Shown: one piece after another, positions 6,888 through 56,183 of the stretch
Layout: every line of letters begins with the position of its first letter
How positions within the stretch are numbered: the stretch's first letter is position 1
NCBI GenBank assembly: GCA_041648335.1
Contig: JBAZPG010000002.1
Span: 30,528 to 94,527 of the forward strand
DNA: 64,000 bases
Origin: Candidatus Micrarchaeia archaeon
Lineage (GTDB): Archaea > Micrarchaeota > Micrarchaeia > Norongarragalinales > Norongarragalinaceae
Reading direction: 5' to 3'
Notes under the pieces: model-generated
The model's input: only the letters and a program-made list of their open reading frames with translations
Databases searched by the model: none
Told to the model about the DNA's origin: nothing
Made by a program: the position numbers and the translations under genes

Positions 6888-7556
6888 ATGCCTAGGCCTA
6901 TGCTTGAGAAGCCGGCGTTTAATCGTCGGGATTTGTCCCGGTTATCCGGAGAAGAGCGCAAAAACTATCTCGCTAACCTGCTTAGGTTGGTGCCAAGCCC
7001 GATCCATTCTAACACTAAACCCATAATCGCCGCGTTTATGAAAAATAGGTCACTTAATACTGCCGCGAAAGTGTTGAATGATACCGGCGTTGTTGTCAAC
7101 AAAATAGCACAAATATTTAGGGCGCACGGCGCTGATCACCGCGGAATTACTAATGGTTTGAATGCTGCGGGTTTTGGTAATGAGGATATTGCTCGTGGTT
7201 TGAAGTCTGCTGGTTTTGATTACGAGGATATTACTAGTGGTTTGAAGTCTGCTGGTTTTGGTCATGAGGATATTGCTCGTGGTTTGATTTCTGCGGGTTT
7301 TGGTGAGGATACTATTGCTAGTGGTTTGAAGTTTGCTGGTTTTGGTAATGAGGATATTGCGGTTGGTTTGTTTGCTGCTGGTTTTAGTCATGTGGGCGTT
7401 GCGAGTGGTTTGAAGGCTGTAGGGTATAATCATGTGGACGTTGCTCGCGGTTTGATTGCTGCTGGTTATGGTCCTAAGGATGTTGCCCGTGGTCTGATTG
7501 ATGCGGGGTTTAGTCCTGAGCGCGTTGTTCTTGGTTTGAAGTTTGCGGGGGTATAA
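6888..7556 (+). CDS. Tandem-repeat protein, N-terminal segment (18-residue GL(K/N)(S/A)AGF..EDIA repeats); terminated by a frameshift in a G5 run
   Basis: Non-repetitive N-terminal 75 aa, then 8 or more repeats of ..EDIARGLKSAGFGH..; stop created at the homopolymer gcggggg (7547-7551). Confidence 0.55.
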   Translation: MPRPMLEKPAFNRRDLSRLSGEERKNYLANLLRLVPSPIHSNTKPIIAAFMKNRSLNTAAKVLNDTGVVVNKIAQIFRAHGADHRGITNGLNAAGFGNEDIARGLKSAGFDYEDITSGLKSAGFGHEDIARGLISAGFGEDTIASGLKFAGFGNEDIAVGLFAAGFSHVGVASGLKAVGYNHVDVARGLIAAGYGPKDVARGLIDAGFSPERVVLGLKFAGV

Positions 7557-7870
7557 CCCTATGGCTGTTGCGATTGGTTTGAATGCTGCTGGTTTTAATC
7601 ATAAGGCTATTACCCGCGGTTTGAATGTTGCTGGTTTTGATCATAAGGCTATTGCCCGTGGTTTGAATGCTGCGGGTTTTGATTATGTGGATATTGTGGC
7701 TGGTTTGAAGTATGCGGGTTTTGGTCACGAGGATATTGCGGTTGGTTTGAAGTCTGCTGGGTATAGTCCGGCGGATGTTGCTCAGTGTTTGAAAGCGGTT
7801 GGTTCTAGGGATTACAACGAACTTGCTCGTGCTTTGAAAGCCGCTGGTTTTGATAACCTAGACATTGCCC
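7130..7870 (+). repeat. About 54-bp coding tandem repeats (ggtttgaa..gctggttttg..gaggatattgc..) underlying the repeat protein
   Basis: Direct repeats visible at nucleotide level; produce low-complexity shadow ORFs on the opposite strand. Confidence 0.6.
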
Positions 7871-8397: not shown

Positions 8398-9836
8398 GGG
8401 TAACTCCTCTTCGCCGCCTGGCTGGGGCGGATGTGTTCTTCGAACAACGGCACTGCCACGGGCAGGGCGAAGCGGGTGAAAACGCTCGTGACTATAGCCT
8501 CGCCCTTGTCGAGCGCGGCAATCGCCTTATCATCCGTGGACAAATCCTGGGAGGCGCTTGCTATGAGCGCGTCGCGCTCCTGTTTCATCTCGTTTCCGAG
8601 TATGATTTTCGTGTTCAGGTTCGCGAGCACCTCGCGGGGAATCAAGCTCGCGAGCTGGGTGACTGCTATCAAGCCGACGCCGAACTTGCGTCCCTCGCGC
8701 GCGATGCTCGAAAACACGTTCGCGCCCGCGGCTTCGCCGAGCACGCGGGGCGCCTCCTCGAGCACCACGCTAACTACGGGTTTGTTCTCTTGTGCTGCCT
8801 TGCGTTTGTTGAAGAGCGCGTTCGCGAAAACGCTCGCGACTAGGAGTTCGGCTTCGCTCGAGAGGCGCGAGGTATCCACGAGCACCTTGCGGGAGGCGAG
8901 CAGGTGGCTGGTGACATCGTCCACTATTGTCTTGCCGCCTTCCGCGGTGAAAACGCGTTCGTCGAGCACGATTCCGAGCTTGCGTTGGAGCACGTTGAGC
9001 GTAATGTCCTGGACTTTGTCGCCCAAGGTTTCGCCGGCGAGGAGTTTGGGCACCCACTCGTGGTCCCAGCTCTTGAACGCCAGGTGCATGGTTTGCTGTT
9101 GCGCTTCGGTGAACGGCATCACGCCGTTGAAGTGCCACGGCTTGAGCGACGCGTAGTTGATGCGGAGCGAGACCTGTCCGTTCTCGGGGTTCGGGGAATA
9201 CGATTTCAGCCACTCGCCCGCGTGCGGGTGGCTGCGTAGGGCGCGGTGGTACTCGTTGTGCGGGTCCATCACAAGACAGCCGCAGTAACCCTTGTCAAGC
9301 AAATCGTAGAGCATGACTTTCACGAGGTTGCTCTTGCCGCGTCCGGTGGTTGCGGGTATGAGGATGTGGTGGCTCAACACTTTCTCGCCGTCGAGCTCGA
9401 TGCGCTTGCCGGTTGTCTTGCTCCCGTTCCGTAAGTTACCAATGTACAACGGTTTCTCGGGTTTCTCGAGGAACGCCAAGTCCGAGTCGTTGATGCGTCG
9501 CAAACCCTTGAAGAAAGCGGGGAGGCGCTTCGTCGCGACTGCTTTCCCGTTCCGCAAGGTAACCAAGCCCTTGACCTTGGCTAGCACGTAGTTGCGTAAT
9601 TCTTCCTCGAAGAAAACCGATTTCTCCGCCTTGCCTTCGAGTTTGAGTCCGCTCATCAACTCGATTTGCTCGGGCGCGGTCTGGCTCCCGTACTCCAAAT
9701 CGTACACCTGGAGGAGCTGCGTGGAGTCGCCTTCCTCGCACGCGAGCAACTCGCCGATTTCGAGCGCTTCGCCGCTCTTCTGGCGCACGGCGATTTCCCC
9801 GAAAGCGCCCGAGACAATCTGGCTTACTATCTCCAT
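8394..9836 (-). CDS. herA: HerA-family DNA repair helicase (FtsK/HerA ATPase)
   Basis: Walker [17 protein letters not shown], FtsK-like ATPase core; preferred start is the internal ATG (MEIVSQ...) 10 nt after the nurA stop rather than the longer track ORF (to 9992). Confidence 0.8.
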
Positions 9837-11627: not shown

Positions 11628-12247
11628 AATACTGTCCGGCATGCGGAAAGGCGCTCCCCCAGCCGAACCCGAAGCACTGCCCGGAATGCGGCGAGGCAAC
11701 GAGCGCGCGGTTTGCCGCAAAAGCCGTGGAGAAGAAGCCGAAGATGAGTATTGTCGGACGCCTGCGGGTACTCGGCATTGCAGCTCTCGTGTTGATTTTC
11801 CTTTTCGCGGCTGCAATGTGCGCGGCTGCGCCTTGGCAACGCGCGGCTGCGGCGGGAAACCAGTATTACGAATACCTGACAATGTTCAACAACGACTTGA
11901 ACGACCTCCAGCAACTCAACGAACAATACGACGAACTGCCGCTCGACGATTCGGCGTTCAATCGGAAGTCCGCGATTGCGGGCAGTTACGCCCTGCAGGC
12001 AAGCCAGGCGGTAACCACCTGGAGGTACTTCGATTCCTTCATAACCAAAAACCAGGCGTCGCTGGCGCGGTGGGATTTGAACGCCAGCCTGACGCAGGCG
12101 CGGATAACGGATAGTCGGGCGGTCGTACGGAACACCGCGAATAAAATGGCTTCGGAACTCGAGGAATTCGCGGGCTCGAACCCGGAGAGAATGGCTTCGA
12201 TTTCAAGGATGCTCGAAAAACTCAAGGAACTGGGGAACTTGCAATGA
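11624..12247 (+). CDS. Zinc-ribbon (CPACG..CPECG) membrane-anchored protein, paralog of the previous gene
   Basis: N-terminal C-P-x-C-G x2 zinc ribbon, one TM helix, helical extracytoplasmic domain; ATGA overlaps with both neighbours. Confidence 0.45.
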   Translation: MKYCPACGKALPQPNPKHCPECGEATSARFAAKAVEKKPKMSIVGRLRVLGIAALVLIFLFAAAMCAAAPWQRAAAAGNQYYEYLTMFNNDLNDLQQLNEQYDELPLDDSAFNRKSAIAGSYALQASQAVTTWRYFDSFITKNQASLARWDLNASLTQARITDSRAVVRNTANKMASELEEFAGSNPERMASISRMLEKLKELGNLQ

Positions 12248-13998
12248 AACTGATTGCCAACGGATACGGGTTGACTGCGCTGTTGCTTGCGGCGTTGTTG
12301 TTGGCTGCGCCCCTTGCAAGCGCTCAGGAGGAAGAAATGATTTCCGTGCCGTTCGTTTTCCAATTCTATTTCCTTTATGGAACGAGCGTAGGCGAATGCG
12401 ATGCCAATTGCGTGGGCTCGTGCATGTCCCCGTGCTATGCCGCTGCGGCAGCTGCAGGCGGGTTAAGTGGCACCTCCAACTGCGGTTCCGTGTGCCCGTC
12501 CAGGTGCGCCAGCGAATGCGCCGCGGTATTTTCAAACGCGTACCAGGCGGACGACGGGCTTCCCTCGACCCCATTCGAACCGGAATGCAGTTACGGCTCC
12601 TACACCGCTTGCGAAGTACCGCAACAATCCGTGTCGGAGATAGAACCGTCCTGGCCCGTTATTTCCGAGGGAACGCCCTCGCTCGATGGACCCGGGATGC
12701 TTGGCGGAGGCACGGAGAGCGACGGGGAATACGATGGTGGCGCGGGCATAACCGTCGAGCCGCAAACCTGTGCCGCAACAGCACCCGACGGCCACCCGCT
12801 GCGGTGGGACCAGATTTGGGGTTGCTATGACATTTTCTGGAAGAACGATTACTGCGCTGTCGCAACCGGCTGCAACACCGGCGTGCCGTGCACCGGAAGG
12901 CAGGGTTGCATATGGAATGGTGCCTCCTGCGTGCCGTGCAATGCGCCGACCTGCATATACTCGTGTCCTGGAACTGGTGGCGGACCCGCTGCGCCAGCCG
13001 ACCGGGTGACTGCGGTTCAAAATGAAATTCCCGCGCCCACTGCTGCACCGACGCGCCAGGCGGGCGGAACACCGACTCCCGTGCCAAGCGCAGCGCCAGC
13101 ACAGCCCACCCCAACAGCCATCCCTACTGCAACGCCCGCCCCGGTATGCGGCGCCTACGGGAACTGCAAGGCGTGCGTGAACGCGGCGAAAGAGGAGGGT
13201 GAAAGCGTTTGCGGGTGGTCCGAATTCCTAAACATTTGCATGGACGGCGACACCTGGCGCGCGGTGAACGCGAGCGGGCTCAAGGCCGGCTGGGCGGATG
13301 AGGAAAAGTACTGTCCGGTCCAAGCCGAGGTTTACTGTTTTGAATTCACCGACTGCTTTTCCTGTGCTGGCAATGCCGGCGTCAAACGCGAGTGCCTGTG
13401 GTCAACCACCCAGGAAAAATGCGAGCCCTACGACGCGTTCGGGGATTTCAAAACCGAGGACAACCCGAAGGGCAAGGACGTGATTCTTCCAACAATGTGC
13501 TCGGAGCGCGACTGCTCGGCGTATTCCGGGTGCGCGGAATGCGAGGGTAACGCCGCGTGCATTTGGCCGGAGGGCGGCGATGAGTGCTCGACGTTCAAAG
13601 GCGACGGCGAGGGCGCATACTTCTTCCCGAGCGCGTGCCCTGATGCAACAATTGAAGCGGTTGTGGCTGCGCCGACGTCCGTCCCCTGTCCGGCGGGCTG
13701 CAAGTGCAACTCGCAGGCGAAACCGGTTTCGTGCGGCGGCAAGAGCATTGATTCCGCGAGCCTGGTTTCAGTTGACCGCGCGGTTGTAAACGCGGGCGCT
13801 TCTCTCCAGCGGGTGAACGAGGTGGAGTTCAACCAGGCTGCTGCCGGCGGGAACGCATCCTACGCCGTGCGCGGTTCCCGGAGTGGAGTGGTATTCTTCG
13901 TGTTGCCCGTGAGCTTTGACGTTACCGCGGTTGTGAACGCGGAGACCGGCGAAGTCGAATCAGTCGAGCAGCCCTGGTGGAGCGTCCTAGTCGGCTGA
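12244..13998 (+). CDS. Secreted Cys-rich protein with repeated PSI-like (C..C..C..W..C) modules and a Pro/Thr/Ala-rich linker
   Basis: Signal peptide (LLAALLLAAPLASA); over 40 Cys in recurring CxxC..CxW..C patterns; PTAAPTRQAGGTPTPVPSAAPAQPTPTAIPTATPAP linker. Confidence 0.5.
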   Translation: MKLIANGYGLTALLLAALLLAAPLASAQEEEMISVPFVFQFYFLYGTSVGECDANCVGSCMSPCYAAAAAAGGLSGTSNCGSVCPSRCASECAAVFSNAYQADDGLPSTPFEPECSYGSYTACEVPQQSVSEIEPSWPVISEGTPSLDGPGMLGGGTESDGEYDGGAGITVEPQTCAATAPDGHPLRWDQIWGCYDIFWKNDYCAVATGCNTGVPCTGRQGCIWNGASCVPCNAPTCIYSCPGTGGGPAAPADRVTAVQNEIPAPTAAPTRQAGGTPTPVPSAAPAQPTPTAIPTATPAPVCGAYGNCKACVNAAKEEGESVCGWSEFLNICMDGDTWRAVNASGLKAGWADEEKYCPVQAEVYCFEFTDCFSCAGNAGVKRECLWSTTQEKCEPYDAFGDFKTEDNPKGKDVILPTMCSERDCSAYSGCAECEGNAACIWPEGGDECSTFKGDGEGAYFFPSACPDATIEAVVAAPTSVPCPAGCKCNSQAKPVSCGGKSIDSASLVSVDRAVVNAGASLQRVNEVEFNQAAAGGNASYAVRGSRSGVVFFVLPVSFDVTAVVNAETGEVESVEQPWWSVLVG

Positions 13999-24063: not shown

Positions 24064-25476
24064 TTGTTGAAGTCCACCGCGGAAGTGCGCGTGCCCAAGG
24101 ACCCGCTCGAGCAGGTCATCGGACAGGAGCACGCCGTGGAAATCGCGAAGGTCGCCGCCCGCCAGCGCCGCCACCTCCTCTTGGTTGCCGCGCCCGGCAC
24201 CGGGAAGTCCATGCTCGCCCAAGCCATTGCCTTCCACTTGCCCGAGCCCACCGAAGAGATATCCGTGCTCCACAATCCCGCGAACCCCGAACGCCCCACG
24301 GTCGAGGTACGCTCGCGCCAGCAAGCGTCGCGTGAAGAGAAGGCGCGCGAGAGCGTGAAGGGGCGCCTCGTGGATCCCGCGGACGTGCCCTCGTTCGTTG
24401 CCGAACGCCTGGGCTTCAGGTGCCCGCGCTGCGGACAGCTCGGACGCGCCTCCGAGGAGGCGTGCGCGAACTGCGGTGCTGACAAGTCGTTCTCGGTGAA
24501 CCCGTTTTCGAGCATCTACTTGGACAAGCGCGAGCGCCCGAACCAGGTATCAACAACGCGCCTCAAGGAGGACAACTCCGAGGAGGTAATCGTTTACGAG
24601 CGCCAAGGCGAACGCGTGCGCGTGCTCGACCAGAGCGCCCTGGAAAAGCTGGAGGAGCTCAGCAAGCGCCAGCCCCGCAAGATTATCGTGCCCTTCAACC
24701 GGAACGCGTTCGTTGTTGCAACGGGCGCCTCGGAAACCGAGCTCCTCGGGGACGTGAAGCACGACCCGTACGGCGGGCACCAGCAGATTGGGACGCTCGC
24801 TTATTTGCGCGTTGTCCCTGGAGCGGTGCACGAAGCCCACCAAGGCGTATTGTTCATTGACGAGTTGAGCGCGCTCGCGAGCGTCCAGCGCTTCCTGTTC
24901 ACCGCAATGCAAGAGAAGAAATACCCAATCGTGGGGCGCAACCCCCAGAGCGCGGGGGCGAGCGTGAAAGTCGAGGGCGTGCCCTGCGATTTCGTGCTCG
25001 TCGCGGCATCCAACATAAAGGACTTGCCGTCAATCCTGCCCCCGTTGCGGAGCCGCATAATCGGGAACGGTTACGAAGTGCTCCTAGATACCGTGATGCC
25101 GGACACCGCTGGAAACCGCGCCAAAATGTGGCAGTTCACCGCACAGGAGATACGCAAAGACGGGAAAATCCCACACGCCTCCCCCGAGGCTGTGGAGGAA
25201 ATAATCAATGTGTCGTGCGGGAAGGCGCGCGAGTACGACGACGCCGACGACTCCCTCACTTTGCGTTTCCGCGAGTTGAGCGGCATCGTGCGCATCGCCG
25301 GGGACTTGGCGGTTTCGCGCGGAGTTGACTTGATTGACGCGGAATGCGTGCGCGGCGCACTCAAGCTGGGAGCGCGCATCGAGCGCCAGATAGAGGACAA
25401 GTACGATTCGGTGTGGAAGGCGGAAGCCGCGGACTCCCTGCGTCCGGCGGCAAAACCGGACAAGTCGAACGCCTAA
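24064..25476 (+). CDS. LonB-like AAA+ ATPase lacking TM insert and protease domain, with a Zn-ribbon insert
   Basis: LonB-type N-terminus (DPLEQVIGQEHAVEIAKVAARQRRHLLLVAAPGTGKSML), CPRCG..CANCG insert, Walker B GVLFIDEL, sensor/arginine-finger region; ends about 120 aa after the AAA module without a Ser-Lys protease domain. Confidence 0.6.
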   Translation: MLKSTAEVRVPKDPLEQVIGQEHAVEIAKVAARQRRHLLLVAAPGTGKSMLAQAIAFHLPEPTEEISVLHNPANPERPTVEVRSRQQASREEKARESVKGRLVDPADVPSFVAERLGFRCPRCGQLGRASEEACANCGADKSFSVNPFSSIYLDKRERPNQVSTTRLKEDNSEEVIVYERQGERVRVLDQSALEKLEELSKRQPRKIIVPFNRNAFVVATGASETELLGDVKHDPYGGHQQIGTLAYLRVVPGAVHEAHQGVLFIDELSALASVQRFLFTAMQEKKYPIVGRNPQSAGASVKVEGVPCDFVLVAASNIKDLPSILPPLRSRIIGNGYEVLLDTVMPDTAGNRAKMWQFTAQEIRKDGKIPHASPEAVEEIINVSCGKAREYDDADDSLTLRFRELSGIVRIAGDLAVSRGVDLIDAECVRGALKLGARIERQIEDKYDSVWKAEAADSLRPAAKPDKSNA

Positions 25477-26921: not shown

Positions 26922-27182
26922 ATGCCTCCCCTGTCGATTCGCCCGGGAATGCGCCCGAAGGAGCTGAAGGAGGAATTGAGCCGCCAAGGTTTCGGTTTCT
27001 CGAACGAAGCCAAGGGCGGACACGTTGCGTTGACTTGGGAGGGCGAACTGTTGCGCTCCGAAAGCGGGCGTCCGGTGGTAATACCCGTTCATGGCAGCAA
27101 AAACGCGTTGAGTTCGGGTGTTGCCTCGCAGTTGAGGCGTCAAGTAGCGCCTTATTTGGAGCAAATAAGAAAGAGAGCGTGA
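26922..27182 (+). CDS. HicA/YcfA-like small protein (candidate toxin); its stop overlaps a GTG start of the LonB fragment
   Basis: KGGHVAL...RPVVIPVHGSK.ALSSGVASQLRRQ resembles HicA (G-S/G-H ... vPvH ... ilrQag). Confidence 0.4.
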   Translation: MPPLSIRPGMRPKELKEELSRQGFGFSNEAKGGHVALTWEGELLRSESGRPVVIPVHGSKNALSSGVASQLRRQVAPYLEQIRKRA

Positions 27183-28198
27183 AGCAATTTTTGAAAAAGA
27201 AAAAGGAAAAGAAGAAGGAACTGTTGTTGCCCGAGTCCATCACTTCTACCAAGGAGCTGGCAGTGCCCAAGCGCCTCGTGGACCAGGTCATCGGGCAGGA
27301 GTCCAGCGTCGAGGTAATCAAGAAGGCGGCTTCCCAGAAGCGGAATGTCCTGCTCGTGGGCACGCCGGGCACCGGGAAGTCCATGCTCGCCCAAGCCATG
27401 GCTGAGCTGATGCCCATTGGAAAGCTAGAGGACGTGCTCGCTTACCCGAACCCCGAGAACGAGAACGCGCCAATAATCAAAGTCGTTCCCGCGGGTGAAG
27501 CCAAGAAAATCGTTGAAAAGGAGCGCGCGAAAGCAACGGTTCCCGGCGGAAGCCCGAACCTCGTGGTAATGCTCGTCATGCTCCTCTTCTCGTTCCTCCT
27601 ACTCACGTTCTGGCGCGAGAGCCTGGGCGACGTGATAACCGCCGCGCTCCTCCTCTGCCTGTTCTTCACCGCGGGCTTGTTCGCTCTCGGTTCCCAACTC
27701 GGACGCGGCGCCCGTTTGTTCGAGCCCGGCGAAACCGCCAAGATACTCGTGGACAACTCAACGCACACCCGCGCCCCGTTCATCGACGCCACGGGCGCGC
27801 GCGCCGGCGCCCTCCTCGGGGATTGCCGCCACGACCCGTTCCAGTCGTTCGAAGCCGGGCAGCGCCTTGAAGTCGATTACAACGGAAAGAAGACCGTGGT
27901 GTCGTTCGAAGATTTGTGGACGCGCGCCGCAACGGATTACCCCGAATCAATCGAACGCAACGAGGACGGGTACGAGGCGCTCGCCTTGCCCGCGGAATTG
28001 AAAGCGTACACCGTGGGTTTCAAGGACAACAAAAAAACACGGACGCGCATCCTCTCGTTGAACCGCCGCCCGTACGACGGCGAACTCGTGAGCGTGGAAG
28101 GCGTGACGGTGACGCCCGAGCACGAGTTGTTCCTAACGGACGGCTCCCGCAAGCCCGCCTCGAAAATCACGAAAAGCGACCGCCTAGTCGTTGAGTGA
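27179..28198 (+). pseudogene. lonB: Membrane LonB protease gene truncated after the AAA+ N-terminal half, ending in an intein N-terminal splicing region (blocks A and B) without intein C-terminus or downstream extein
   Basis: LonB signature VIGQESSVEVIKKAASQKRNVLLVGTPGTGKSML, two-helix TM insert, GDCRHDPFQS, then SFEAGQRLEVDYNGKKTVVSFEDLW (intein block A, Ser1) and GVTVTPEHELFL (block B TxxH); stop at 28198, no Walker B or protease domain follows. Confidence 0.5.
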
Positions 28199-28256
28199 AG
28201 TGCGTGGCATCCGCCGCCTGAAAACCTATTAAAACCCGCGCCCGTTAACTGCGTTC

Positions 28257-29339
28257 ATGAAACTCGACGACGTGCTGGTAAAGGGGAAGAAGAACGTAAT
28301 CCAAGTCGCGCCCGCGGTGCGCGTCACGCTCGGCGAACTCTACGGTTTGCCTGCGGGCACGCCGGCGACCGGGAAAGTCGTGGGCTGCCTCAAGGCGTTG
28401 GGTTTTGACTTCGTATTCGACACGAGCTTCGGCGCCGACGTCGTGGTGGCCGAGGAGAGCGCGGAGCTCGCCAAGCGCCTCAAGGACGGCGGTCCGTTCC
28501 CGATATTCAACTCGTGCTGTCCCGGTTCGGTGCTCTTCCTCGAACACGCCTACCCCGAGCTCGTGCCCAGCATAGTCACGGTGAAGAGCCCCATGGAAGT
28601 CACCGGCTCGCTAATCAAGTCGTATTTCGCGGAGAAGAAGAAAATCGCGCCCTCGAAAATAAATTCCGTGGCGTTGATGCCGTGCATGATAAAGAAAACC
28701 GAAGCCAGGAAGCCGGAGTTCGACTTCGAAGGCATCCGTCCCGTGGACTGCGTAATCACCACGGTCGAACTCGCCGCCCTGCTCGAAGAGGCGGGTGTGG
28801 ACTTCAAGAAGGTTAAGGAATGCGCGTTCGACGACTTGCTTGGTGTCGCGTCGGGTGCGGGACAGATTTTCGGTTCGAGCGGGGGCGTAAGCGAGGCATC
28901 GATACGCAACTACGCTTTCCTCAAGGGGTTGCCCCTCGAGAAGCTGGACTCGAAGCCGCTCCGCGGTTCGGAGGGCTTGCGCGAGGAAACGTTCGACTTG
29001 GGCGGCGAACGCGTGAGCGTCCTGGTAATCAACTGTTTGAAGAACGCGCCGGCTGCGCTCTCGGACAAGAAGCGCCTTGCGAAATACAATTTCGTGGAAA
29101 TGATGGCGTGCCTGGGCGGCTGCGTGGGCGGCGCCGGACAGCCGCCCTCGACGCTCGAGACGCTCGAGGCGCGCCGCAAGGGGCTTTACGGAATCGACGC
29201 CGGCGCGCGCGTTAAGGTCGCCGCCCAGAACCCCCAGATTAAGGCGCTTTACGATTCCTACCTCGGGGAACCGAGGAGCGAGAAGGCGATGCGTATCCTG
29301 CACACCCAGCACGACAAGGTGTGCCAGCACTGCGCTTGA
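28257..29339 (+). CDS. [FeFe]-hydrogenase catalytic H-cluster domain protein (HydA-like, no accessory FeS domain)
   Basis: L1 FNSCCPGS..YPELVPSIVTVKSPMEVTGSLIKSY, L2 VALMPCMIKKTEARKPE, L3 VEMMACLGGCVGGAGQP; N-terminus KGKKNVIQVAPAVRVTLGE..LGFDFVFDTSFGAD matches the start of the CpI H-domain. Confidence 0.8.
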   Translation: MKLDDVLVKGKKNVIQVAPAVRVTLGELYGLPAGTPATGKVVGCLKALGFDFVFDTSFGADVVVAEESAELAKRLKDGGPFPIFNSCCPGSVLFLEHAYPELVPSIVTVKSPMEVTGSLIKSYFAEKKKIAPSKINSVALMPCMIKKTEARKPEFDFEGIRPVDCVITTVELAALLEEAGVDFKKVKECAFDDLLGVASGAGQIFGSSGGVSEASIRNYAFLKGLPLEKLDSKPLRGSEGLREETFDLGGERVSVLVINCLKNAPAALSDKKRLAKYNFVEMMACLGGCVGGAGQPPSTLETLEARRKGLYGIDAGARVKVAAQNPQIKALYDSYLGEPRSEKAMRILHTQHDKVCQHCA

Positions 29340-29351
29340 AGGAGTTTTTGA

Positions 29352-30590
29352 ATGTCGAAACGGATTTTGAGCATATCGCGCGCCCCCGGGCAGTTGGCTT
29401 CCGCTAGGGCGGCGGGTTTCAACCGCGTCGAACTTTTTACCAAGGGCATTTCATCCGAGAACATGGAAGCGAAAATAGCTGAGGCGCAACGCCTGCTGAA
29501 AGAGCACTCGCTCTCTGTGGGTTCGGTGGTTATACCCAAATCATCCACGCTCGCGGATTTCAAAGAGAACGCGCGCCTCACGATTGCTTTTGCCTCGGGT
29601 GTTGGCGCGAAAATCGTGGTCGCCGACTACCCCGCTTTCCGCGGCGGCGAGTACCGCAAGAAAGAGCGCGAGGGCGCGGACATTGTTTCCCCCGCGGCGC
29701 TTGGCAACGTGCGCGGCTTGCTCAAGAGCGTGCCGCACCCGTTCGAAGTCGCCGAAGCGTTGTCCGAGTTGAAGAAGGACGCGGCGAGCAGTAAAGTCAA
29801 GATTTTGATTGAGTCGACGGGTGGTTCTGCTTTGCTTTACAAGCCGCTCGGCTTCAAGGCGTTCGAGCGCGTGGCGCGCGCCTCGCACGGACTCGTGCTT
29901 GATTTGGAGCACGTGGCGCAGGCAATGATAGCCCAGCCCGTGGAAGAGGTTTACAACCCCGCAACGCGTTTCCTATCCAACCGCGGCTCCGAGGAGGACG
30001 CGGTTCTGGTGCGCTCTTTCTATCAGGATTACGGCAATCACATGGATGCGCGTTCGAAGCGGGCGTTCCAGGACTTCCTGGAGGCGCACGGCAAACCGGG
30101 CGAAGAGGCGCGCTTCAGGAGTGCCTGCACGCGGTTGCTGGCGTTGACGAAACCCGGGTTACGCGGCTTCGGGAAAGAAGGCGCAACGCCAAAGGACTTG
30201 CAAGTCAAGCCGTCGAAATGGGTGTACGGGTTGTTCGTCAAGGCGTGGGGCTCGCTCCCGATAAAACACGTGCACCTGACCGGCGGGCACCTCGGGGAAC
30301 GCCTCGCGCCAAGCGAAACCGTGCGCACCTCGTTCGGTACCTCGGACTTGGCATTCGAGCACGCTTACGAAATCGAAACCCCGCGCGGCGAGCCGATAAT
30401 CTTGGGTTCGAAGCCCGGGCAATCGCTTTACGAATACCTGCACGCGAAAATGGGCGGCAGGCTTTACGCGAACAAGCCCTGGCACGAGTTCGCGCGCGAC
30501 TTGCTGGACGGCCGCAAGGCAACTGTGAATTTCGAGATAGAACCGAAACTCGTGCGCCCCGCGGACTTGAAGAACGCACGAAATTTGTGA
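29352..30590 (+). CDS. Hypothetical protein, possibly a xylose-isomerase-like TIM-barrel (sugar-phosphate isomerase/epimerase) fold
   Basis: N-terminal pattern AAGFNRVELF resembles this fold; otherwise unassigned; 12 nt downstream of the hydrogenase-like gene. Confidence 0.35.
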   Translation: MSKRILSISRAPGQLASARAAGFNRVELFTKGISSENMEAKIAEAQRLLKEHSLSVGSVVIPKSSTLADFKENARLTIAFASGVGAKIVVADYPAFRGGEYRKKEREGADIVSPAALGNVRGLLKSVPHPFEVAEALSELKKDAASSKVKILIESTGGSALLYKPLGFKAFERVARASHGLVLDLEHVAQAMIAQPVEEVYNPATRFLSNRGSEEDAVLVRSFYQDYGNHMDARSKRAFQDFLEAHGKPGEEARFRSACTRLLALTKPGLRGFGKEGATPKDLQVKPSKWVYGLFVKAWGSLPIKHVHLTGGHLGERLAPSETVRTSFGTSDLAFEHAYEIETPRGEPIILGSKPGQSLYEYLHAKMGGRLYANKPWHEFARDLLDGRKATVNFEIEPKLVRPADLKNARNL

Positions 30591-30663
30591 CGCGCACTTA
30601 TTTTATCGGGTTTTGAAGAATTAATGTAGTTTTAAAAACACGCAAACAAGTTGTTTCGGCGTT

Positions 30664-30903
30664 TTAAACGGGCATTGCAACCTGTAATGTGGTTACAAAT
30701 TTAGTTCCCTGTCGGTTCATAATTTCTTTCTTTTCGTTTGGGGTTAAACATTCTATGTGTAATTCTATTGCTTCCCGTAAATTAGCGGTTGCAGTAGGTA
30801 TGTCCTTACCTTGCGAGGCTACATCTAAATCTGGACACCAGGCGGTGTAGGTTGCACCATCTTTATAGGTTACTGCTGAAAAGCCCAAAACATTCGTTTT
30901 CAT
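30664..30903 (-). CDS. hicB: HicB-like antitoxin N-terminal domain (UPF0150 fold)
   Basis: TYTAWCPDLDVASQGKDIPTATANLREAIELHIECL matches HicB; the real start is the internal ATG at 30903, and the longer track ORF (to 31125) has an implausible N-terminus. Confidence 0.55.
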   Translation of the reverse strand: MKTNVLGFSAVTYKDGATYTAWCPDLDVASQGKDIPTATANLREAIELHIECLTPNEKKEIMNRQGTKFVTTLQVAMPV

Positions 30904-30976
30904 GTAATCTCTTTCGATGCGAGGGTATATAAATAGAGTTAAACAAAAACCATAACTGTAACTTAAGTGATGTTTT

Positions 30977-31636
30977 GTGAGTTTTGTTGAAACATTGACG
31001 GATGATGTTGATCCTCTTGACAGCCTATTTGTAAAGGGCGAATCTCTGAATCGTGAATTACTTAGGGACTTATTGTTTGATTTTATAAGATTAGACGAAA
31101 GCGGACGAATTTTTCCGCTTACCAATTTTTATTCAGAAACTAATCGTAATAAAGTTTTATTATTACTTCTTGCTAGTAAAGCTCTTTCATTGAAAACGAA
31201 CATTGTTGATGATGTTTCGCCAAAAGAGCTAGAAAAAACATCAGATATTCCTGCGGGGTCCATACGTCCAACTCTACGTCAACTTGCCGAAGAACGTTTA
31301 GTTGAGGAAAATGATGGACGGTATAAGATATTATCTGGTGCGTTACCCCGCTGTTCTCAAATTCTAAAATCTGGCAACCGAACCAGACGTGCTGTTTCTT
31401 TTTCTGGAATTTCAACTGAAAAAACTCAAAAGAGCATGGCGTCCGTTTTGAAAGATTTAGTTTCGGAGGGCGAATTAGATTCGGGTCAGGCTGCGTCTGA
31501 AGTTTTTTCTTTGGTTAATCAACGTCGACCTAACACGAAATATAATGCCCTTTACAAAGTGCTTAAGGATTTAGTTCATGATCGAATATTAGCCCGAGAA
31601 ATGAAGGGAGACGTTTGGAATTATAGGCGAATTTAA
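30977..31636 (+). CDS. Hypothetical protein with a central winged-helix-like segment
   Basis: 219-aa ORF in the low-GC island; SIRPTLRQLAEERLVEENDGRYKI looks wHTH-like; stop overlaps the hicA start (TAATG). Confidence 0.4.
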   Translation: MSFVETLTDDVDPLDSLFVKGESLNRELLRDLLFDFIRLDESGRIFPLTNFYSETNRNKVLLLLLASKALSLKTNIVDDVSPKELEKTSDIPAGSIRPTLRQLAEERLVEENDGRYKILSGALPRCSQILKSGNRTRRAVSFSGISTEKTQKSMASVLKDLVSEGELDSGQAASEVFSLVNQRRPNTKYNALYKVLKDLVHDRILAREMKGDVWNYRRI

Positions 31637-31854
31637 TGAAAACGCCGGTTGTAACTGGAAAAGAGGTTTTATCCGTTCTACAAAAAAACGGTTTTGCAGT
31701 AGTTAGGTGGAAAGGATCTCACGCGCATTTAACTAAGGGTAGCTTGCAGGTTACCGTGCCGGTACACAGTAATGATGAGATTAATCCGGGTGTTTTACGG
31801 TCTATTGCACGACAAGCAGGATTTGAACCAAATTCTTTCTTCAATTTGTTTTAG
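31636..31854 (+). CDS. hicA: HicA-family mRNA interferase toxin
   Basis: VLQKNGFAVVRWKGSHAHLTKGSLQVTVPVHSNDEINPGVLRSIARQAGF is a near-consensus HicA. Confidence 0.75.
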   Translation: MKTPVVTGKEVLSVLQKNGFAVVRWKGSHAHLTKGSLQVTVPVHSNDEINPGVLRSIARQAGFEPNSFFNLF

Positions 31855-31876
31855 TAATAATATGCGGATCCGCGCG

Positions 31877-32272
31877 TTAATTTCGCTTCTCGAACTCGTC
31901 GACCGCACCGTGGAAGTATTTGCTCAACTTTTTCCTGCACGTTTCGAGGGGAACCCACTCGCATTGCGAGTGTTCGCCGCCGCACGCCAGCACCCCGCCT
32001 TCCAGCGAGCAGGCGAAGACAATCATGGTTATGGACTGCCCGTCGTCGCGCGTGAAGTGGTGGACCTGCAGGGGCGCGCCCACGCGGGTTTCGAGTCCGG
32101 TTTCCTCGCGCACCTCGCGCTTCAAGCCGTCGAACGGGTTCTCTCCTTCTTCGAGTCGTCCGCCAGGTATCTCCCACAAGCCAGGGCAGTGCTCGTCGTC
32201 CTGGTTCCGCTTAATCAGTAGCACCCGGTTCGAGTCGACTATGAACGCCTTGACGGCGATTGCGTGCTTCAT
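31877..32272 (-). CDS. NUDIX hydrolase
   Basis: Nudix box GGRLEEGENPFDGLKREVREETGL. Confidence 0.8.
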   Translation of the reverse strand: MKHAIAVKAFIVDSNRVLLIKRNQDDEHCPGLWEIPGGRLEEGENPFDGLKREVREETGLETRVGAPLQVHHFTRDDGQSITMIVFACSLEGGVLACGGEHSQCEWVPLETCRKKLSKYFHGAVDEFEKRN

Positions 32273-32499
32273 TTTTTTAGTGCAGGGGAAGGGATTTTCA
32301 TCAAGCCTTTCTTTTCATCGAAGTTTTCTTTCGCGAAAGAAAAGTTCGTTTTTGAACCCTTGAACCCCTAAGGGATTGGCTCCTAAAGCCAACGCGTTTG
32401 ACCAGGCTCCGCCACCCCTGCACAATAATATTTTCGGGCGGCGGGTTAAAAACCGCTTGCGCAAGCAATTAAAAATCCGCGGCGCTTGTTTTCGTTCAG

Positions 32500-48849: not shown

Positions 48850-48954
48850 CGCCGAGGACGAGATTCGAACTCGCACAGGTCAAAGACCCACCAGATTCCT
48901 CGCCCTTTCTCGGGGCTTCGAGTCTGGCGCGTTACCGGGTTCCGCCACCTCGGC
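48850..48954 (-). tRNA. tRNA-Ser (anticodon CGA) with long variable arm and a putative approx. 20-nt intron after position 37
   Basis: Reverse complement: acceptor GCCGAGG/CCTCGGC, discriminator G; anticodon stem CCAGA/TCTGG enclosing CTCGAA + intron (gccccgagaaagggcgagg; intron CGAG can pair with anticodon CTCG as in BHB motifs); variable arm GGGTC-TTT-GACC; T-arm GCGAG-TTCGAAT-CTCGT. Confidence 0.55.
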
Positions 48955-51271: not shown

Positions 51272-52597
51272 ATGCCCGACGGATTACTAAGATGCTATAT
51301 GAACAAGCGCATTTTCGCGTTGCTGTTTTTGTGCCAGTTCGCGGCTGCCGGCGGCTCGCCCTTGATTTGCACTAATTACGATGTCACTACCGAGCTTACC
51401 TTGTCGGGCGCGGTTAGTGCTTGCTACCTGTACGTCCACCCGGGCGCTAGCCTGACTATACGCGATGCGGCAGTCAATGTTTTCGAGGACGGCAACATCA
51501 CGGTTGATGCGGGCGGCTCGTTCGCGGCGCGCAACTCCAGCTTCGCCGGCGGAACGCAGACGTTCGCGTTGTTTTCGCCGGGCTCCGCGGTGCTCTTGGA
51601 GTCCGTGGACGCGCACGGTTTCGGGGTGCCCGCCGCGGGCAAGACCGGCTGGACGATTGCCACTGGAACCGCGCAATTGGATAACTTCAGCGTCCACCAC
51701 GGCTTGGACGGGCTCGTGCTCGAACACGCTTCCGGCGCCTCGGTGCGGGGCGGCTCGTTTTACTCGAACTCGCAGTCCGGCTTGCTCGTCTCGATTTCCG
51801 ACGGCGTTTCGTTTTCCCAGGTGAACTCGTCGTACAACCCGTCGCGGTTGGAGTATTCGCGGGTGCGTTGGCTGGACGGCTTCTTCGAGGAAATGGTTTT
51901 CGCGGACGAGGTCTCGCGCCTCGAGCGCGCGTGGAGCGTGCGCTTCGAGTTCAGCGAGGGCGGCGAGCCGGCTGAGGCTATGCTGTCCGTGAGCGATTAT
52001 TTTGGCGATGTTGTTTATTCGTCCTCCGCACCGGAAGAGTACGCGGAGTTCGAGGCGGTTCAGGCGGTTTACGGGCAGGGCTTTTCGGGCGTCCCGTTGA
52101 ACCTCGGGGACGAGTGGACCGAAGGCGCGCGCACCCCCCATTCTTATTCCGCAGTTTCGCCCGGAGGCGTGGTGGTGAGCGGCAAGTTCGAGGCGGGTGC
52201 TGGCGAAGTCGGCGTGTCATTCGCCCAGGAAACCGCGCCGTCTGCTTACCCCGGCTCGCTGTTCACGATACAGGCGCCCTCGAACATCATCGTGAACCCC
52301 CAGGTGACTATTTACGTTGACCTCGTGTTGAACGGCAAGGGTGCCTGCGGGGCCGCGTTGTCCGTGGGCGCCGCATTAATTGCTTTGGAATCCTGCGATT
52401 CCACGACCGGCAGACACGCGTTCCTGCTCTCGCTCACCGAACCCGGAACCTATGAGTTGATTGCGTCTTACGCGGGGCAGACTGCCAAAGCAACGCTGAA
52501 CGTGGTGGGGCAGCCGCCCCTCGCGTTGCCCGACCACTCGGTTTGGAGTGTTTTGTTTTTGTTAGCCGTCGCGCTGTTCGCTTTGAGGAAGAATTGA
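51272..52597 (+). CDS. Secreted surface protein (Ser/Gly/Ala-rich, possible beta-helix) with C-terminal TM anchor
   Basis: Signal peptide IFALLFLCQFAAAG; C-terminal WSVLFLLAVALFAL helix. Confidence 0.45.
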   Translation: MPDGLLRCYMNKRIFALLFLCQFAAAGGSPLICTNYDVTTELTLSGAVSACYLYVHPGASLTIRDAAVNVFEDGNITVDAGGSFAARNSSFAGGTQTFALFSPGSAVLLESVDAHGFGVPAAGKTGWTIATGTAQLDNFSVHHGLDGLVLEHASGASVRGGSFYSNSQSGLLVSISDGVSFSQVNSSYNPSRLEYSRVRWLDGFFEEMVFADEVSRLERAWSVRFEFSEGGEPAEAMLSVSDYFGDVVYSSSAPEEYAEFEAVQAVYGQGFSGVPLNLGDEWTEGARTPHSYSAVSPGGVVVSGKFEAGAGEVGVSFAQETAPSAYPGSLFTIQAPSNIIVNPQVTIYVDLVLNGKGACGAALSVGAALIALESCDSTTGRHAFLLSLTEPGTYELIASYAGQTAKATLNVVGQPPLALPDHSVWSVLFLLAVALFALRKN

Positions 52598-54956: not shown

Positions 54957-56183
54957 ATGACGCGTGCAATCATTTTGTTCGCCCTTTTGTCCGCCTGCCT
55001 GGCGTACGCGGAGGTGTCGAGCACCGAGGCGGCGCAAGCCGCTTCCACCTACGCTTCGCTCGATTCACTCAAGTCGCTCTCGCGTCCCCTCGAGGCGGGT
55101 TCGGACGCGTACTGGGTGTATTATACTCCGTTGACCTCGTCGAACAAGCTCGTGCTCGCCGTGGGGCAGTTCTATGGTTCCGTGCTCGAGGACGAGGAGG
55201 AACTCGCGCGGGTTGCGGGTGCGGTTTACGATTACGAAACGGCTTACACCACGATTACGGGGGAGGGTTATTCTTTCGACGCGCTCGCCCCCGCGTTTGG
55301 CGCGATTGCGACTGCGTTGCAACGGAACGAGGCGAACCTCTACGACCTCGAAGCGGTGACGCAGTCGAAGTACCCGTTCCTCGACTACTCGGGAATACAG
55401 GAGAACATCTCGCTCTTGCTGGTGGCGTCCGACGACTTGAACGTCGCGTTCCAGGAGGGCGCGACCCAACAGCGTATTTTCGAGGAGGAATACTCGGGTT
55501 CCTCGCTCGCAGTCCTAATCAACTATTATGACTCGGGTTTCGAGGGGCTCGCGGGCTTCCTCGCGGTTTACGAGGACTACCTCGACGCCGTAGCCACGAT
55601 GCAGTCCCAGGTGTACAAGTCGAGCATTCCCTCGAATGACCGCACGAGCATTTACGACAGCCTCGAGAACCTCAAGGAAATCGGCGTTTCCGACATATAC
55701 TCGCAGTTCATCGCCTCGAACCCCCAGGCGCTCCTGGCGACGAAGCGCGCGCTCCGCGATTCGTGGGTCAACGACTCCGTCTCCTCGTTCTCTTACTTGA
55801 AGACGCGCACGAACGCCCTAGCGGCGTACGCCCAACAGAAGCCGCGCTTCGATTACGTTTCCTCTGGTAAAGCGGCGCTCGAAAACTGCGGTTTGGGGGA
55901 CGAAGCCGCCAAGTCGGACGGCTATTACGCGGAACTCGAATACTACAAGAACAAGGGCACCGCCGCATCGTACGCCGAGATGATTACCATACTCGACGAG
56001 GCGGTTCCACTGTTGAACGGGATTTACGCGGATTACTCGAACTGCGTCGCGGCGCCCACCGCCCCGGCGTCGCCCGCTAAGGCGCAGGACAACTCGTGGG
56101 CGCTCTACGCCGCCCTCGCCTTGCTCGCCGCTGCTGGCGCGTACACGTGGTGGAAGAAGAAGCAGGAAGAACAGAACGAGTAG
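54957..56183 (+). CDS. Secreted surface protein with signal peptide and C-terminal TM anchor plus KKKQEEQNE tail
   Basis: IILFALLSACLAYA signal; WALYAALALLAAAGAYTWW anchor. Confidence 0.45.
   Translation: MTRAIILFALLSACLAYAEVSSTEAAQAASTYASLDSLKSLSRPLEAGSDAYWVYYTPLTSSNKLVLAVGQFYGSVLEDEEELARVAGAVYDYETAYTTITGEGYSFDALAPAFGAIATALQRNEANLYDLEAVTQSKYPFLDYSGIQENISLLLVASDDLNVAFQEGATQQRIFEEEYSGSSLAVLINYYDSGFEGLAGFLAVYEDYLDAVATMQSQVYKSSIPSNDRTSIYDSLENLKEIGVSDIYSQFIASNPQALLATKRALRDSWVNDSVSSFSYLKTRTNALAAYAQQKPRFDYVSSGKAALENCGLGDEAAKSDGYYAELEYYKNKGTAASYAEMITILDEAVPLLNGIYADYSNCVAAPTAPASPAKAQDNSWALYAALALLAAAGAYTWWKKKQEEQNE

Follow-up and report, generated by a model that had tools for sequence, protein, structure and literature searches.

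Does a gene that lies among archaeal genes, encodes only the catalytic domain of an [FeFe] hydrogenase and has no maturase gene in view specify a genuine hydrogenase that is native to its host? The question is raised by hydA, a gene in a 64,000-nt stretch of DNA from a Candidatus Micrarchaeia archaeon (GenBank assembly GCA_041648335.1, contig JBAZPG010000002.1, positions 30,528 to 94,527), which was analysed as a whole and is called the window below. A sequence-only reading of this DNA had proposed a stand-alone H-cluster domain gene of a kind rare in archaea, acquired at a disrupted site. On the evidence set out here we consider it likely that the product of hydA is a genuine [FeFe] hydrogenase, monomeric and native to a Micrarchaeota genome, and that it belongs to the 'minimal group A1' clade of DPANN archaea. 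Rarity in archaea is an outdated view, as [FeFe] hydrogenases have been reported from nine archaeal phyla (Greening et al., Cell 2024, PMC11216029). In the same study archaeal group A1 enzymes were described from Iainarchaeota, Micrarchaeota and Nanoarchaeota; they have a mean length of 363 residues, are monomeric with a solvent-exposed H-cluster and without accessory clusters, retain all ligating cysteines, show altered proton-transfer residues and are predicted to reoxidise ferredoxin in fermentation (PMC11216029).

The open reading frame (ORF) that had been assigned to an [FeFe]-hydrogenase H-domain proved to be exact (Table 1). Its product, HydA, matches Fe_hyd_lg_C (PF02906) over the full profile (E 7.3e-78, 262 bits against a cutoff of 22.1) and, at aa 301-353, Fe_hyd_SSU (PF02256; E 2.6e-15); no third Pfam domain was found in it. 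The top sequence matches in PDB are catalytic [FeFe] hydrogenases (1e-86 to 1e-78), with T. kivui HydA1 as the best (3.5e-86). Residues 223-574 of the clostridial enzyme CpI are collinear with HydA (~4e-78), which bears out the collinearity with the clostridial H-domain that had been noticed at the N-terminus. Compared with CpI 229-574 (346 residues), HydA has a 6-residue deletion together with 16 additional N-terminal and 6 additional C-terminal residues, and by this alignment it is of full H-domain length. An AlphaFold2 model based on a 30-sequence alignment of the clade (predicted local distance difference test (pLDDT) 91, predicted template modelling score (pTM) 0.92) superposes on the CpI H-domain with a query TM-score (TMq) of 0.92-0.94 and a root mean square deviation of 1.8-1.9 A (Foldseek). 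A motif scan found no ferredoxin-type Cys motif in HydA, and an N-terminal ferredoxin-like domain is ruled out since the ORF is maximal and only 58 bp separate its start from the end of the upstream gene; the description as an M1-type protein of about 360 aa without such a domain thus holds. An identical protein is present in NCBI (MFA4946167.1, from a Candidatus Micrarchaeota/Micrarchaeia metagenome-assembled genome), the sequence of which probably comes from a genome deposited after Greening et al. 2024.

The active site was compared residue by residue in an alignment of 126 homologues and CpI, whose numbering was checked against PDB 1c4a/3c8y (residues 229-574 identical). All three ligand motifs are as they had been written down from the sequence, including the Ser that replaces Trp in L1. 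In this motif Cys87 corresponds to the proton-relay residue C299 of CpI and Cys88 to the cluster ligand C300, with Ser91 at the position of Trp303 and Asn85 at that of Thr297. The L2 motif provides Met141 (M353), the ligand Cys143 (C355), Lys146 (K358) and Glu149 (E361), which are invariant in 40 of 40 clade members, and the L3 motif provides Met283 (M497), the ligand Cys285 (C499) and the bridging Cys289 (C503). All four cysteines of the [4Fe-4S]H cluster and the bridge are therefore retained (C88, C143, C285 and C289), and they are invariant in the clade; across 30 clade members there are 45 invariant columns, with all cluster ligands among them. The pocket of the 2Fe subsite is likewise intact (C87, K146, E149, M141, M283, P19 at the position of P231 and F205 at that of F417), so that the proton-transfer Cys and Lys, the conservation of which was to be checked, are both present. 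Of the canonical proton chain C299-E279-S319-E282-R286 four residues out of five are kept, E279, E282 and R286 of CpI being E67, E70 and R74 of HydA and S319 being replaced by Val107; a complete chain is typical of group A, although not part of the formal definition of the group. E278, S/T320 and H569 of CpI are kept as Glu66, Thr108 and His349, and at the entrance of the proton path H565 is replaced by Met345. The departures from CpI are T297N, W303S, S319V, Q325M, G507A and H565M.

A search of 5.8 billion proteins placed HydA in a family of about 40 clusters with the same two domains, 336-385 aa in length and 40-70% identical to it, whose named members come from Micrarchaeota, Iainarchaeota and Diapherotrites. 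Next below this short clade follow long (~570-590 aa) bacterial group A enzymes with at most 48% identity. A neighbour-joining tree unites the 40 short sequences in one clade (95/100 bootstrap), within which HydA groups with the sequences P0002 and P0003 (100/100); the tree contains no references of groups B-G and places the short clade among long group A forms. When a profile of the clade was searched against 1.84 billion representatives, one clade representative was recovered at 560 bits, and the next match (446 bits) was a long multidomain form. Among the matches listed from a scan of GTDB species genomes, which include at least two DPANN loci, DPANN proteins are 57-70% identical to HydA, as opposed to 40-47% for the best bacterial genome matches. 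The NCBIfam models give 389 bits for A6, 328 for group A, 297 for the clostridial form and 124 for B1, all of them below the curated cutoffs because these profiles include N-terminal Fe-S domains and only their H-domain part can match. We thus regard HydA as a member of the DPANN minimal group A1 class, either a new one or possibly one already catalogued. As a separate observation, the representative library also contains a protein of 4,122 aa (P0251) that the clade profile matches at seven separate H-domains (2,480 bits) and that is either a giant multi-hydrogenase polyprotein or an artefact of gene calling or assembly.

Several of the departures from CpI belong, by the alignment, to the whole short clade and not to the window gene alone. 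Position 319 is A, C, S, V or G in the short clade but Ser in 84 of 84 long forms; position 303 is T, F, S or A, with Trp replaced in 38 of 40 short sequences and present in 84 of 84 long ones; and position 565 is K, L, R, M or I, compared with His in 83 of 84 long forms. In CpI the exchange S319A leaves only 6% of H2-release activity (PMC6226526), and roles at the proton entrance have been assigned to S320, H569 and E278 (2026 preprint). The substitutions across the clade, the loss in CpI S319A and these entrance roles together point to a modified proton route, which the clade very likely uses. In the mechanism that we propose, reduced ferredoxin would dock directly on the exposed [4Fe-4S]H face and electrons would move on to the [2Fe] subsite. 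Protons would reach the adt bridge via Cys87, a bound water and Glu67, the latter being linked to Glu70, Arg74 and His349 by a route that bypasses Val107, probably through water or Thr108. H2 would then be released as a fermentative electron sink, reoxidising ferredoxin in a genome-reduced symbiont.

The clade has also gained a feature of its own, a C-terminal CxxC tail, which is carried by about 24 of its 40 members and is practically absent from the long forms. The tail lies beyond the small-subunit-like helices and is disordered in the AlphaFold2 model. In the clade alignment no partner cysteines are conserved together with it, and the other extra cysteines of HydA are not conserved either; the main text of Greening et al. 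(PMC11216029) makes no mention of it. It is conceivable, if rather unlikely, that the loss of S319, H565 and W303 together with the gain of the CxxC tail marks an enzyme rewired so that protons enter by another route, and in which the Cys pair might help to acquire [2Fe] without HydEFG or to dock a redox partner that is unusual or supplied by the host. If this were true, the clade would offer a handle on how archaea mature [FeFe] hydrogenases without maturases.

A number of points weigh against a native, H2-evolving enzyme. Val at the position of Ser319 should, by analogy with CpI, slow proton transfer. Binding of the H-cluster and turnover of H2 by HydA are predicted from its homology to CpI and CrHydA1 and from the activity of a Micrarchaeota homologue, and the direction of catalysis is likewise a prediction only. 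The tree was computed by neighbour joining on 127 sequences and is not a full maximum-likelihood phylogeny. Ferredoxin and 2-oxoacid:ferredoxin oxidoreductase genes were not found in the 64-kb window by Pfam or by six-frame motif scans, and Pfam found neither a radical-SAM enzyme nor a HydF-type GTPase among its ORFs of at least 230 aa and many smaller ones (four large ORFs have no Pfam family). A six-frame scan of the open frames of at least 50 aa detected neither a CX3CX2C nor a CX2CX2CX3C motif, which argues against HydE or HydG in the window; the absence of HydF rests on the Pfam scans only. The earlier statement that no hydE, hydF or hydG is visible in the window is thus upheld. Radical-SAM motifs are also missing within +/-10 kb of hydA at the corresponding locus of a related genome (L003, a 527-kb contig from another assembly) and at the loci of four more distant clade members (L004-L007).

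That no maturase was detected in the window speaks for an alternative in which the protein is made but never receives [2Fe]; it would then serve as a [4Fe-4S] protein in some other capacity, e.g. in electron transfer or in Fe-S handling of the Nar1 type, or be a relic without function. A full HydEFG set is present in only 5 of 130 hydrogenase-encoding archaeal genomes, and most of them lack maturases (PMC11216029). From this near-absence Greening et al. propose an alternative maturation route, and their Micrarchaeota enzyme 'Mu' does bind [2Fe]adt and evolve H2, in lysate at half the rate of CrHydA1 (PMC11216029). The main argument against an apo role comes from those residues that are needed for [2Fe] only (the equivalents of C299, K358, E361, M353, M497 and the bridging C503): they are invariant in 40 of 40 sequences at 40-70% identity, which speaks for continued selection for H-cluster binding. 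HydA also lacks the N-terminal Cys cluster of Nar1-type proteins. We therefore consider it improbable that HydA is an apoprotein or a relic.

It is less probable still that HydA senses or takes up H2 instead of producing it in fermentation. The interruption of the canonical proton pathway (Val for Ser319, Met for His565) would suit such a role, and changes in the proton path have been reported for sensory group C/D enzymes as well. Yet the equivalents of Cys299, Glu279, Glu282, Arg286, Glu278 and His569 are all kept, Pfam detects no PAS or signalling domain, the best NCBIfam matches are group A models, HydA falls among group A in the tree (which is without B-G references) and the published homologue evolves H2 (PMC11216029).

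Whether hydA is native to the genome can be judged from its surroundings. The window carries archaeal genes, e.g. for Hjc resolvase, PAC2, an archaeal DnaG-type primase, LonB-type ATPases and Rad50/Mre11/HerA, and further genes for leucyl-tRNA synthetase (LeuRS), Asx-tRNA synthetase, FtsZ, mevalonate kinase, UPP synthase and a type IV pilus ATPase and platform protein. In the neighbourhood of hydA itself lie the genes for the LonB N-half described below, for a TIM-barrel protein and for HicA, NUDIX and mevalonate kinase. Collinearity between the window and the related locus L003 extends over at least 17 genes, and the order LonB N-half, hydA, NUDIX is common to both. HydA is 70% identical between the two, which lies within the range of its housekeeping neighbours (51-89%) and thus indicates vertical descent since the lineages split; in the more distant L004-L007 hydA is found in unrelated contexts. 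By its G+C content at the three codon positions (0.60/0.42/0.82), hydA cannot be told from its neighbours. The identical protein is encoded on a 533,585-bp ENA contig with archaeal genes on both sides, and window positions 27370-32336, which span the junctions of hydA, are matched at 100% identity by a 4,967-bp Logan contig; this match between assemblies is weaker evidence than the synteny, since two assemblies may share reads. We conclude that hydA has descended vertically for at least as long as its lineage has been separate from the closest sequenced relative, and that any transfer from bacteria to archaea dates back to the base of the DPANN clade or beyond. The archaeal context is therefore genuine and not that of a bacterial contaminant. 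That hydA was recently acquired by horizontal transfer at a disrupted LonB/intein locus, or is a bacterial fragment brought in by misassembly, is barely credible: the gene before hydA does look like a truncated LonB, group A hydrogenases are mostly bacterial and several lateral acquisitions of archaeal group A enzymes from bacteria have been inferred (PMC11216029), but the same gene order in another species, the divergence of HydA in step with the block, its native codon composition, the conservation of the LonB N-half as a DPANN family, the identical junctions in a second assembly, the archaeal flanks and a nearest bacterial identity of at most 47% among the matches listed all speak against it, and with it against the decayed site that had been suggested.

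Table 1. Features of the hydA locus, in window coordinates
Feature	Position	Strand	Evidence and remarks
hydA, predicted 360-aa minimal (M1-type, H-domain-only) group A [FeFe] hydrogenase	28257..29339	+	ORF, Pfam, PDB, AlphaFold2, Foldseek
H-cluster domain, Fe_hyd_lg_C, aa 11-293	28287..29135	+	Pfam, profile positions 1-245 of 245
L1 motif N-S-C-C-P-G-S, aa 85-91	28509..28529	+	Alignment to CpI numbering
Val107-Thr108, at CpI Ser319-Ser320 positions	28575..28580	+	Alignment
L2 motif M-P-C-M-I-K-K-T-E, aa 141-149	28677..28703	+	Alignment
L3 motif E-M-M-A-C-L-G-G-C-V-G-G-A-G-Q-P, aa 281-296	29097..29144	+	Alignment
Fused small-subunit-like C-terminal helices, Fe_hyd_SSU, aa 301-353	29157..29315	+	Pfam and alignment; His349 = CpI H569
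C-terminal Cys356-x-x-Cys359 tail (C356-Q-H-C359-A), clade-specific	29322..29333	+	Alignment; pLDDT <50
Putative TATA-box-like element TATTAAAA, 22 nt 5' of the hydA ATG	28227..28234	+	Sequence; putative archaeal promoter
LonB N-half with probable intein N-half, upstream of hydA	27179..28198 (longest ORF from 27035)	+	Profile, alignment
412-aa xylose-isomerase-like TIM-barrel gene	29352..30590	+	Weak AP_endonuc_2 match; 12 bp 3' of hydA, GGAG

The upstream gene encodes a Walker A motif and two transmembrane helices up to the sequence GDCRHDPFQ, followed by Ser, an intein N-fragment of ~115 aa with a block-B-like TPEH and a stop. Its ortholog in L003 (335 aa) also lies directly upstream of hydA, is 61% identical over the full length and ends at the same point. 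The family comprises 937 matches at E<=1e-10; the best 120 of these 937 are all 320-430 aa in length with 81-100% query coverage, and the named ones among the 120 come from Micrarchaeota, Diapherotrites, Iainarchaeota and Norongarragalinales. The family alignment shows the LonB Walker A motif, the two transmembrane helices, an invariant GD(V/C)RHDP(F/L)Q and then Ser or Cys, after which a module of ~110 aa leads to a near-invariant T-P-E-H and a stop. The N-terminal part of the family profile matches archaeal LonB structures (1e-74), and its tail (positions 230-315) matches PDB 2jmz, MJ0781 of M. jannaschii (1e-7), which we take to be the KlbA mini-intein of this organism. The most economical reading of these features would be a naturally split LonB, the N-half of which carries an intein N-fragment (Ser/Cys as +1 nucleophile, TxxH as block B), and the gene is probably a split intein. 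It is neither a pseudogene nor a part of the hydrogenase. A LonB C-half (C-terminal intein part plus protease) was not found by motif in the window, at the other DPANN loci analysed or near the gene in two other genomes, and the literature searched offered nothing relevant on a split LonB intein in DPANN. A functional link between the LonB N-half and hydA was considered and rejected, as elsewhere members of the LonB N-half family occur by themselves among different genes; the adjacency of the two is lineage-specific synteny. The architecture is widespread in Micrarchaeota and Iainarchaeota and may be a natural split intein worth a study of its own. A second LonB-related gene lies at 24064-25476 (+) and encodes a soluble AAA+ module of 470 aa (TIGR00764 positions 170-403 plus Walker A) with a zinc-ribbon/DUF7130 insertion and without transmembrane helices or protease domain; it is 75% identical in L003.

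Between the LonB N-half and hydA lies the element TATTAAAA, and similar A/T boxes are found at comparable distance from hydA in L003 and L004. Judged by its letters and position it would fit a putative archaeal promoter with a leaderless or short-leader mRNA. On the other side of hydA, the short gap of 12 bp and the GGAG suggest that the TIM-barrel gene is probably co-transcribed with it. The TIM-barrel protein forms only four 90%-identity clusters in 5.8 billion proteins, the named ones from Micrarchaeota. As a partner or maturation factor of hydA it was rejected, being absent from the syntenic L003 and very rare. Further downstream we noted an islet of low G+C content (~30600-31900, 46% vs ~60%) with a gene for a HicA toxin (31636-31854, Pfam 7e-18), a 219-aa ORF (30977-31636) and, on the strand opposite to HicA, a HicB-like ORF (30664-31125) without Pfam match; the islet is likely a small mobile insertion. 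The TIM-barrel gene, the HicA/HicB-like islet and the mevalonate kinase gene are all missing at this position in L003.

At the loci of more distant clade members, neighbours of hydA of a different kind were observed. A multi-pass membrane protein of about 170 aa adjoins hydA at L005:9473-9985 and at L007:~9402-9812 (43% mutual identity), and no homologue of it was found in the window, L003, L004 or L006. A membrane protein of the hyd6TM type is associated with group A hydA (PMC11216029), and the protein of L005 and L007 is probably this 'hyd6TM' of Greening et al. At L006:11026-11598 (Micrarchaeia) an ORF of 190 aa overlaps the end of hydA and starts with CxxxxxCxxCxxxCC, possibly encoding a small Fe-S or Zn protein.

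Some features of the window stand apart from hydA. The four large ORFs for which Pfam gives no family at E<=1e-4 lie at 791-2347 (518 aa), 12244-13998 (584 aa), 51272-52597 (441 aa) and 54957-56183 (408 aa), and their codon composition is native. A 42-bp (14-codon) tandem repeat with about 15 copies (73% match) occupies 7154-7793 in a patch of 51% G+C; it overlaps the minus-strand ORFs 7050-7433 and 7510-7728, both without Pfam family, and may either encode a repeat protein or form an array without coding function. A 105-nt tRNA at 48850-48954 (-; Rfam, 47.9 bits) was not called by ARAGORN and overlaps the start of the LeuRS ORF as delimited; it fits an intron-containing archaeal tRNA and is listed as a candidate.

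The class to which HydA belongs, its activity and the puzzle of its missing maturases were already published in 2024, and the window gene leaves this knowledge unchanged. The minimal archaeal [FeFe] hydrogenases are the smallest group A catalysts of H2 and raise the question of HydEFG-independent maturation; to these the window adds a well-assembled example on a 533-kb contig with clean synteny. Beyond classification, our analysis contributes the vertical inheritance of the gene in a Micrarchaeota lineage and a residue signature of the clade, with S319, H565 and W303 lost and the CxxC tail gained.

Among known systems, the closest counterparts of HydA are the DPANN minimal group A1 enzymes (e.g. 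'Mu' of Micrarchaeota UBA95 sp002499405 and 'Ia' of Ca. Iainarchaeum andersonii), to which it was matched by their published description. It shares with them the phyla, the restriction to the H-domain, the length (360 aa, compared with the mean of 363 aa) and the altered proton-transfer residues, and hydA has no adjacent HydB, HydC or HydD genes, consistent with a monomer. Ferredoxin and 2-oxoacid:ferredoxin oxidoreductase genes often adjoin hydA in Micrarchaeota (PMC11216029); unlike in this description, hydA of the window has no adjacent gene for 2-oxoacid:ferredoxin oxidoreductase, HydC or hyd6TM. Chlamydomonas reinhardtii HydA1 (M1-type, 457 aa, PDB 3lx4; sequence match 1.7e-78) also consists of the H-domain only, with ferredoxin as the direct electron donor at the [4Fe-4S]H face. 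However, it matches in two stretches whereas the clostridial forms match in one, has the canonical Ser, Trp and His at the equivalents of positions 319, 303 and 565 and depends on HydEFG, and HydA is about 100 aa shorter. The H-domain of CpI (~209-574; PDB 4xdc/3c8y) is collinear with aa 11-354 of HydA at 36-38% identity, with all cluster ligands and most pocket residues identical, but CpI has four accessory Fe-S clusters in an N-terminal F-domain and HydA has none. A canonical HydEFG-dependent hyd locus has hydE, hydF and hydG nearby, none of which was detected by the Pfam and motif scans in the window.

More remote systems differ in kind. The 'ultraminimal' group E enzyme of Ca. Forterrea multitransposorum (Fm, ~286 aa) likewise comes from DPANN, is monomeric with a single [4Fe-4S] cluster and [2Fe], and is encoded in a genome without maturases; however, group E forms a separate clade, sister to the sensory group C, with shortened loops, whereas HydA has the full H-domain length and is group A-like. 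Sensory group C/D enzymes (HydS-type) carry a PAS or signalling domain and have lost relay residues of the C299/E279 type, whereas HydA has no such domain and keeps C87 and E67. In Nar1/NARF-like homologues the pocket is lost and an N-terminal Cys cluster is present. HydA, with all H-cluster cysteines and the 2Fe pocket kept and no N-terminal Cys motif, is on its residues not Nar1-like, in line with the earlier assignment to the catalytic hydrogenases.

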